A stretch of 64,000 nt of DNA from Escherichia coli (GTDB lineage Bacteria > Pseudomonadota > Gammaproteobacteria > Enterobacterales > Enterobacteriaceae). The notes below the pieces were generated by a model. The model was not told the origin of the DNA. It worked only from the letters and a program-made list of their open reading frames with translations, and did not search any database. This document shows positions 44,305 through 44,873 of the stretch, in pieces (the stretch's first letter is position 1; every line of letters starts with the position of its first letter). The translations under genes and the position numbers were made by a program. The stretch lies in NCBI RefSeq assembly GCF_003790525.1, contig NZ_CP033635.1; one strand, written 5' to 3'.

Positions 44305-44719
44305 AGTCCCTCACCTCCGCCATCCGACATTACGGACGGCAGCAAGTCAGAATCTCGTTATAAAAAAGCCGCACGAAGAGGCTGTTTGTTCAGGTATTTT
44401 ATCCAGTGCGCCGTAAAACCCCGACCTTCAGGGTGTGGAGGATGTCAACATCAATAACTGACATTCTGCCCAAAGCTCCCGAAGATTCCCTTTGCACAAT
44501 TTCACTGACCGGATCTCAGCACAAGCCACAGGGAATGGTCAGTGTGACGCTCTCTGTGGCCCCTCCTGAAAAGCCCTGTGGTTTAATCGCGACGGACCTG
44601 GCGCGGATATGAAGCAGGCCGTGAGCACGAGCCTGGAAATTTAGTGCCGACTACCGGAATTGAAGTGGTGGCCTGATGGTTACAACTAAACTGTTCTGCC
44701 GACTGAGGTAAGTCGGCGC

Positions 44720-44796
44720 TGGACCGCCACCGGGGACTCGAACCCCGCACAGTCAGCTTAGAAGGCTGATGCTCTCTCCTGATGAGCTAGTAGCGG
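44720..44796 (-). tRNA. tRNA-Arg (anticodon UCU), CCA encoded
   Basis: Manual fold: acceptor CCGCTAC/GTGGCGG, D-arm GCTC-ATCAGGAGA-GAGC, anticodon stem TCAGC/GCTGA with loop CTTCTAA, T-arm CGGGG-TTCGAGT-CCCCG. Confidence 0.85.
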
Positions 44797-44797
44797 T

Positions 44798-44873
44798 TGG
44801 TGGCCCTTGCTGAATTTGAACCAGCGCCCTTGCGATTATGAGTCGCTCGCTCTCACCACTGAGCTAAAGGGCC
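44798..44873 (-). tRNA. tRNA with CAU anticodon (tRNA-Ile2/lysidine type or Met), CCA encoded
   Basis: Manual fold: acceptor GGCCCTT/AAGGGCC, D-arm GCTC-AGTGGTGA-GAGC, anticodon loop CTCATAA, T-arm GCTGG-TTCAAAT-TCAGC. Confidence 0.85.

Follow-up and report, generated by a model that had tools for sequence, protein, structure and literature searches.

We analysed a 64-kb window of the Escherichia coli chromosome (64,000 nt of contig NZ_CP033635.1, assembly GCF_003790525.1; all positions count from its first letter) in which two tandem tRNA genes, tRNA-Ile2(CAU) and tRNA-Arg(UCU), precede a phage holin gene. The pair very probably belongs to the late-control and lysis region of a mosaic lambdoid prophage that supplies tRNAs for rare codons and whose cargo slot is unoccupied, holding decayed fragments only. 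Read along the minus strand, the region opens with the antiterminator gene Q, followed by an oppositely oriented porin gene and an insertion sequence (IS) of the IS5 family. Next come the predicted late promoter pR', a candidate terminator tR', a promoter-like element, and the tRNA array itself, with tRNA-Ile2, tRNA-Arg, and a dead tRNA-Thr. A 340-nt non-coding patchwork then leads to the holin, the endolysin, and the Rz/Rz1 spanin genes. Arrangements of this kind are known and routine, and the Prokaryotic Genome Annotation Pipeline (PGAP) annotates them.

Two intact tRNAs for rare codons

In the whole window, ARAGORN called two tRNAs and no others; both lie on the minus strand. Both score far above the gathering score of the Rfam tRNA model, 29 bits, and both have intact stems and encoded CCA ends. 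The original prediction had placed a tRNA-Arg(UCU) and a CAU tRNA of either Ile2 or Met type upstream of the holin, and had proposed tRNA prediction as a check. ARAGORN accepts both genes and the Rfam scores agree.

The CAU tRNA is 96% identical to ileZ of a Stx2a (Shiga toxin 2a) phage, 87% to ileX of K-12, and only 68% to metT/metU (the names and descriptions of ileZ, argN, and argO follow GenBank annotations). Its acceptor stem, GGCCCUU/AAGGGCC, contains the pairs C4-G69 and C5-G68, which are reportedly determinants for TilS. Because it is closer to ileZ and ileX than to metT/metU and carries both of these pairs, we assign it to the Ile2 (lysidine) type rather than the Met type. We infer that it decodes AUA and depends for this on lysidine at C34. 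Three clustered differences (44831, 44827, and 44813) separate the gene from ileZ. The same variant is found in the related chicken-isolate prophage GF60 but not in that of strain 135, which has the canonical ileZ sequence and a different Q.

The UCU tRNA is 86% identical to argN of the Stx2a phage, 62% to argO, and 67% to K-12 argU. In the Stx2a phage, ARAGORN reads the anticodon UCG in argN and UCU in argO, and the gene in the window is therefore an argN scaffold with the anticodon of argO. A20 and C35 are identity elements for arginyl-tRNA synthetase (ArgRS). The UCU tRNA carries both, with the D-loop AUCAGGAGA, and has the features of a tRNA-Arg that reads AGA and AGG.

Codon usage and a proposed role for the array

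AGA, AGG, and AUA are the rarest codons of E. coli. Per 1000 codons, the host genes that flank the prophage use AGA, AGG, and AUA at 2.6, 0.4, and 2.4, respectively. The corresponding values are 6.0, 5.9, and 6.9 in the late genes, 8.8, 7.0, and 7.9 in the early genes, and 17.1, 7.0, and 18.6 in the cargo genes. All three codons are thus two to fifteen times commoner in prophage genes than in the flanking host genes. Codon usage was another check that the original prediction had proposed, and AGA and AUA are indeed enriched, late genes included. It is above all the genes for tail fibre, tail-fibre assembly, regulation, and cargo that account for the excess. Among the AGA- and AUA-rich proteins is the tail fibre assembly protein encoded at 19402-19977.

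Since the codons read by the array are rare in E. coli and enriched in the prophage, we propose that the array relieves a translational bottleneck for phage and cargo proteins. In the lysogen, transcripts from pR' would end at tR', and the array would be transcribed weakly from its own promoter. Upon induction, Q would load onto RNA polymerase at pR' and allow it to pass tR', the tRNAs, and the hairpins of the spacer and to go on into the genes for lysis and morphogenesis. Both tRNAs would then be released from the late transcript by RNase P and 3' processing. TilS would turn C34 of the CAU tRNA into lysidine so that it reads AUA, while the UCU tRNA would read AGA and AGG. The stretch from the array to the holin corresponds to the classic lambdoid cargo slot, the site of stx2 in Stx2 phages, here unoccupied.

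Several observations weigh against this account. One of the differences between the CAU tRNA and ileZ turns the near-universal G53-C61 pair into a G53.U61 wobble, and the Ile2 tRNA may therefore be partly impaired. Close relatives have a tRNA-Lys(UUU) in the position of tRNA-Arg(UCU), which the supply of rare-codon tRNAs leaves unexplained. The core head and tail genes are almost devoid of AGA, AGG, and AUA, so any benefit from the tRNAs would fall mostly to tail-fibre, regulatory, and cargo genes. The tR' assignment is tentative because its stem has only four G-C pairs. More generally, the promoter, terminator, and Q read-through assignments are inferred from consensus matches and homology.

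Alternatively, the tRNAs could be decaying, functionless passengers in a defective prophage. Of the three tRNA genes, that for tRNA-Thr has already decayed, the Ile2 tRNA has its G53.U61 pair, an IS element has inserted nearby, and a partial open reading frame (ORF) interrupts the lysis cassette. However, both live tRNAs keep their stems and CCA ends and score well clear of the Rfam threshold, the set of prophage genes is apparently complete, and the IS element lies outside the late transcription unit. We consider functionless passengers very improbable and retain rare-codon supply as the probable role of the array.

The layout itself is not distinctive. Of 5426 complete E. coli genomes, 3001 carry the tandem tRNA pair (coverage of at least 80%). 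An argO-like tRNA occurs in 2379 genomes, and only 599 of those run on into stx2A.

Table 1. Coordinates of the late-control and lysis region and of the integrase in the 64-kb window
Feature	Position	Strand	Evidence
Rz spanin	42383-42859	-	PHROG 13, E=1.6e-77
Candidate Rz1, ORF embedded in Rz	42442-42624	-	Embedded position, as rzoD in DLP12
Endolysin (lysozyme), hydrophobic N-terminus	42841-43374	-	PHROG 7, E=9e-63
Opposite-strand ORF, 125 aa, between holin and endolysin	43498-43875	+	PHROG 1853, E=5e-41, profile 57-158/159
Holin, 90 aa, two predicted transmembrane segments, Met-Arg-Met dual start	44032-44304	-	PHROG 1350, E=3e-29
Degenerate hairpin and T6, terminator relic after gene fragment	44362-44385	-	Read from the sequence
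51-bp relic, 3' end of small phage gene, encoding DILHTLKVGVLRRTG before the stop codon	44398-44448	-	PHROG 1925 family
Non-coding spacer segment	44449-44564	-	Overlapping ORF without PHROG match; no Rfam match
Conserved array 3' flank with degenerate hairpin, homologous to argO 3' flank	44565-44641	-	Alignments
Decayed tRNA-Thr(UGU) pseudogene	44645-44717	-	Rfam 19.8 bits, below gathering score; not called by ARAGORN
tRNA-Arg(UCU) on argN scaffold, predicted AGA and AGG reader	44720-44796	-	ARAGORN; Rfam 54.5 bits
tRNA-Ile2 type (CAU), ileZ/ileX-like, predicted AUA reader after lysidine modification	44798-44873	-	ARAGORN; Rfam 67.8 bits
Promoter-like element for tRNA array, TTGCGG-17 nt-TATTAT	44883-44911	-	Ends 9 nt before first tRNA
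Candidate tR' terminator, CCGC-AGCCAG-GCGG then T6	45000-45020	-	Fold; homologous hairpin and T-run in DLP12
Predicted late promoter pR': -35 TTTACG 45081-45076, 16 nt, -10 TATCAT 45059-45054	45054-45091	-	Promoter scan
IS5-family insertion sequence (transposase 45396-46376)	45328-46522	+	NF033581, 367 bits (cut-off 140)
Porin cargo gene, OmpF/OmpC/NmpC-like, intact, opposite to late operon	46672-47778	+	PHROG 410, E=1.6e-154
G+C-rich hairpin with A and T runs on both sides, between convergent Q and porin	47922-47938		Terminator scan
Late antiterminator Q, 140 aa, phage 82/DLP12 QuuD type	47957-48379	-	PF06530 1-118/118, E=1.6e-53; PHROG 79, E=9e-53
Integrase	59497-60810	+	97% identical to Stx2e phage P27 integrase

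An unoccupied stx2 junction

Stx-converting phages carry stx in the interval from Q/pR' to the lysis cassette, and some are known to integrate in yecE (PMC8065619), the gene in which this prophage is inserted too. The Stx2 phages 933W, Sp5, and Stx2a_F723 carry ileZ-argN-argO between pR' and stx2AB, while phiP27 has ileZ-argO. The window resembles them in its ileZ-type first tRNA, the argN scaffold of its second, and the homology of its pR', Q, and array 3' flank. The late region is homologous to that of Stx2 phages module by module, with identities of 75% for Q (protein), 88% over 51 bp for pR', 96% for ileZ, 86% for the argN scaffold, and 85% for the endolysin (DNA), and the locus therefore occupies the stx2 position of the toxin phages.

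The window lacks stxAB and nanS-p, and has two live tRNAs and a Thr relic instead of Ile-Arg-Arg, spaced by 1 and 2 nt rather than 7 and 13 nt. Its second tRNA has the anticodon UCU and not UCG, its holin is of another family, a porin gene and an IS element lie between Q and pR', and its virion genes are of the long-tailed, phage 21-like kind. Searches by tblastn with StxA1, StxB1, StxA2, StxB2, and NanS-p gave no match in the whole window (E<=1e-3 for the Stx subunits), in agreement with the claim of the original prediction that stx is absent. With no stxA-stxB operon, with late genes best matched by phage 21, PhiR63_2, and ev017, and with similarity to phiP27 limited to int-xis and short patches, the prophage does not qualify as a Shiga-toxin-converting phage.

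We compared the sequence on the 3' side of the array with the 90-bp gap between argO and stx2A. The local alignment score is 34, against a shuffle mean of 15.5 (sd 1.9). About 60 nt directly 3' of the array align with this gap, and the match stops some 25 nt short of the stx2A start codon. When several sequences are aligned together, those of Stx2a and P27 part from the window at ~44583, while an stx-negative prophage, EcPF40, remains alignable to ~44565 (72% over 76 bp). The EcPF40 prophage has the layout ileZ-argN-argO followed by a TerB-family gene. Because the window follows an stx-negative prophage past ~44583, we read this point as an unoccupied stx2 junction and not as a deletion scar.

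The opposite history would be that of a former Stx-converting phage which lost stxAB by deletion, with the 415-nt gap between tRNA-Arg and holin as the scar. The homology of the late-region modules to Stx2 phages would fit such a loss. So would the integrase and yecE site, both as in the Stx2e phage P27, and the 92% identity of 51 bp within the gap to the sequence 42-92 bp upstream of stx1A in H-19B and BP-4795. However, tblastn found no remnants of StxA, StxB, or NanS-p, and DNA comparisons found no similarity to the Stx-phage sequence downstream of the junction, beyond which the window continues like the stx-negative prophage. The 51-bp element is inverted relative to the Stx1 phages, and is also present away from stx in HK97, HK106, and Min27. 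The array spacing and the Thr relic fit a non-Stx Ile-Lys-Thr-Gly array, the similarity to P27 is patchy outside int-xis, and the head and tail genes are phage 21-like. Loss of stxAB by deletion is extremely improbable and already largely refuted.

Two candidate scars were considered and rejected. The array 3' flank is common to stx-negative prophages; the 51-bp match to the stx1A-upstream sequence is inverted, and in HK97, HK106, and Min27 the element forms the 3' end of a small ORF. When the spacer was compared with every intergenic segment of the Stx2a phage by sensitive blastn and local alignment, the array 3' flank was the sole match. No residual stx, no stx-downstream sequence, and no join of upstream to downstream flanks were found in the window. 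The original prediction had suggested comparing the gap with stx flanks in search of a scar, and this comparison yielded the array 3' flank and the inverted 51-bp piece but no scar. It had also described the layout as a landing pad in an stx-negative relative or derivative of an Stx phage. The position and the homology hold, whereas the idea of toxin loss is unsupported, given the missing stx trace and the stx-negative continuation.

The absence of stx is the common state and no sign of toxin loss. A backbone like this one, which combines an unoccupied stx2 junction (~44583) with a P27-type integrase and insertion in yecE, is of a type open to recombination with Stx phages.

Turnover of the tRNA array

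A third tRNA gene, now dead, follows tRNA-Arg. This tRNA-Thr relic has broken D, anticodon, and T stems. Its identity to the tRNA-Thr of phage PhiR47_1, which is intact, and to other phage and host tRNA-Thr genes is ~82%, and its sequence is unchanged in the close relatives GF60 and strain 135. The array is tightly packed, with 1 nt between Ile2 and Arg and 2 nt between Arg and the Thr relic. A fourth relic, of a tRNA-Gly, was sought after the Thr relic, where the alignment score fell below the shuffle mean.

PhiR47_1 and similar non-Stx lambdoid phages carry an Ile2-Lys(UUU)-Thr(UGU)-Gly(UCC) array between Q and holin. This array, with an Ile2 of anticodon CAU, is widespread and occurs in many E. 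coli genomes (PhiR47_1 record 5049-5358). The window is 87% identical to PhiR47_1 over 278 bp that take in the promoter-like element, Ile2, the second tRNA, and the Thr position. It has the same 1- and 2-nt spacing, and its endolysin and Rz are 93% identical. Unlike PhiR47_1, the window has Arg(UCU) in the second slot, a dead Thr gene, and no Gly tRNA, and its spacer and holin differ.

Closer still are prophages of chicken isolates. GF60, LH50-c, Ch1, and strain 135 are 97-99% identical to the window across the tRNA, spacer, holin, and endolysin region, and GF60 additionally shares the Q-porin module, with the IS site free. GF60 carries Lys(UUU) instead of Arg(UCU). Between GF60 and the window, 15 of 1428 positions differ (99% identity), and 12 of these 15 lie within 44730-44776 of the second tRNA. 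Across this 47-bp core the gene is Arg(UCU) in the window and Lys(UUU) in GF60 (record positions 7532-7608), on a shared scaffold. The scaffold of the second slot thus bears UCG in Stx2 phages, UCU in the window, and UUU in GF60, and the difference at 44730-44776 looks like a localised cassette exchange.

tRNA-Lys(UUU) and tRNA-Thr(UGU) are the host targets cleaved by AriB of the PARIS system (PMC12409363) and by P2 Old (PMC12445682). P2 Old causes P2-lambda interference, which a phage tRNA-Thr(UGU) rescues (PMC12445682). Because Lys(UUU) and Thr(UGU) are the targets of AriB and Old, some lambdoid arrays may serve counter-defence. In the literature, we did not find a stated link between cleavage of Lys and Thr tRNAs and lambdoid prophage arrays.

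The array in the window might accordingly serve mainly for counter-defence, as a set of nuclease-resistant replacements for host tRNAs cleaved by anti-phage systems. Two observations favour this idea: the closest arrays carry exactly the tRNA-Lys(UUU) and tRNA-Thr(UGU) that AriB and P2 Old attack, and GF60 differs almost solely by the 47-bp swap of an Arg for a Lys core, suggesting selection on the tRNA carried. In the window, however, the Thr gene is dead and the Lys gene absent, and the decoding range of the two intact tRNAs coincides exactly with the rare codons enriched in the prophage. A nuclease specific for tRNA-Ile2 or tRNA-Arg(UCU) was not identified in the present analysis. Counter-defence and codon supply are not mutually exclusive, but counter-defence as the main function seems quite improbable here. 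It has no direct application to the two live tRNAs and is best kept as a low-probability side reading. A related scenario, which we hold to be unlikely, would make slots 2 and 3 of the array exchangeable cassettes whose Lys and Thr members are nuclease-resistant against PARIS and P2 Old; the lineage of the window would have lost those members and kept the rare-codon decoders. Irrespective of function, the dead Thr gene and the Arg/Lys core swap show that the tRNA set of a prophage turns over, which is relevant to phage tRNAs both as codon suppliers and as counter-defence elements.

The gap between tRNA-Arg and holin

The gap measures 415 nt (44305-44719) and starts with the tRNA-Thr pseudogene; the original prediction had given it as about 330 bp (44305-44640). 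Its statement that the gap contains no convincing ORF stands. None of the gap ORFs, including one of 68 aa on the plus strand, has a PHROG match, and PGAP annotates nothing there in near-identical genomes. The full spacer is present in just 19 E. coli genomes.

The 51-bp fragment within the spacer is sharply bounded. Copies at 90-94% identity lie upstream of stx1A in H-19B and BP-4795; HK97 and HK106 have theirs close to attP, and in Min27 the copy ends ORF79. The copy 42-92 bp upstream of stx1A in H-19B and BP-4795 is the inverted one, 92% identical to the fragment. The fragment recurs at unrelated module boundaries, also near the right end of Min27 and 933W-like phages. From this distribution we take it to be a scattered module-boundary fragment and not an stx flank, and it may be a recombination linker.

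Searches for structured RNA in the gap with Rfam at E<=10 gave just the tRNA relic and a sub-threshold match to an isrK-like 3' end. The latter (44362-44434, minus strand) resembles IsrK of Salmonella Gifsy-1 at 16 bits and E=0.38, where the gathering score is 50. The match is driven mainly by the terminator hairpin and probably reflects only a decayed terminator. Across the whole spacer, unusual RNA structure is absent (fold z-score -1.2). The ribosome-binding site of the holin comes after the hairpin and T6 at 44385-44362.

Q, porin, IS element, and late promoter

The Q protein is 80% identical to QuuD of DLP12, in addition to its 75% identity to Q of the Stx2a phage. The original prediction had described a Q-tRNA-lysis architecture. 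The tRNAs do precede the holin, but Q lies 3.1 kb upstream of them, with the porin gene on the opposite strand and the IS5-family element in between.

The nearest counterpart of this part of the window is DLP12, the cryptic prophage of K-12, with quuD, nmpC::IS5, essD, rrrD, rzpD/rzoD, and borD. Both have a porin gene convergent with Q and sharing a hairpin terminator, an IS5-family insertion in the same interval, and a homologue of pR'/tR' after the porin and before the holin, and the Rz-to-bor region is 90% identical. DLP12, unlike the window, has no tRNA genes between pR' and essD, and the holins differ. The porin occupies the same position as nmpC of DLP12; its matches to the NCBIfam OmpF and OmpC models fall below their cut-offs. 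The hairpin between Q and porin is probably a bidirectional terminator, and DLP12 has a comparable arrangement.

The IS element is 91% identical to IS5 of K-12, with terminal inverted repeats GGAAGGTGCG. It is flanked by a TTAG target duplication (45324-45327 and 46523-46526), and GF60 has the uninterrupted site with a single TTAG. In DLP12, the IS5 copy has landed within nmpC. In the window, the porin ORF is intact and its start codon is 145 bp away from the IS upstream, which cuts the gene off from most of its AT-rich upstream region. This insertion could silence or activate the porin gene.

The predicted pR' adjoins the tRNAs, not Q, and overlaps a relic of the C-terminus of an ancestral Q (ending in TLRS and a stop codon). 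A 51-bp segment (45091-45041) is 88% identical to the last Q codons and the sequence just downstream of them in Stx2a_F723, and in DLP12 the sequence that precedes essD matches this segment at 77%. The porin insertion appears to have split off the last codons of the ancestral Q, which survive 2.9 kb away at 45066-45091, over the -35 of pR'. Transcription from pR' is predicted to start near 45047, and the candidate tR' follows ~45 nt further on. The lysis genes are preceded by a promoter-like site and a weak hairpin with T6 that have homologues in the corresponding parts of Stx2a and DLP12.

The second promoter-like element, at the head of the array, is also kept upstream of the arrays of Stx2a_F723 (79%) and PhiR47_1 (86%). 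In the Stx2a phage Sp5, a start site has been mapped between tR' and the tRNAs and appears to drive the latter (Sy et al. 2020, PMC7547250). The element would drive the tRNA array here.

The lysis cassette

The cassette consists of holin, endolysin, and spanin genes with matches to PHROG 1350, 7, and 13. The holin has weak Pfam matches to class II holins (HP1 and P21 families), and PGAP calls it 'phage holin family protein' in near-identical genomes. The hydrophobic N-terminus of the endolysin suggests a signal-anchor-release type. In relatives, the counterpart of the opposite-strand ORF between holin and endolysin is a partial gene according to PGAP.

The prophage as a whole

The prophage is ~45 kb long (roughly 15976-60816) and inserted in yecE of the E. 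coli chromosome. The host sequence on either side matches K-12 at 98% identity; one flank reads hexR ... aspS-yecD, and the opposite flank reads yecE-cmoA-cmoB. It is apparently complete, with integrase, repressor, replication, Q, lysis, terminase, head, and tail genes. The att core of P27 is shared, as TTAACTGCGTG on the left (near 15965-15975) and TTAACTGTGTG on the right (near 60829-60839). The int-xis DNA is 95% identical to phiP27 over 2 kb, and elsewhere the similarity is patchy. We rejected a derivation of the prophage from phiP27, as just int-xis is shared at high identity. The late genes (25 kb, head and tail) are 94% identical to phage 21, PhiR63_2, and ev017.

Two cargo ORFs at the left end, both on the minus strand, have the highest density of AGA, AGG, and AUA in the window. 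The first (16869-17324, 151 aa) has a weak sigma-factor-like match and contains 107 of these codons per 1000. The second (17386-19002, 538 aa), at 52 per 1000, has a signal-peptide-like N-terminus and a C-terminus like those of phage adhesin and tail proteins.

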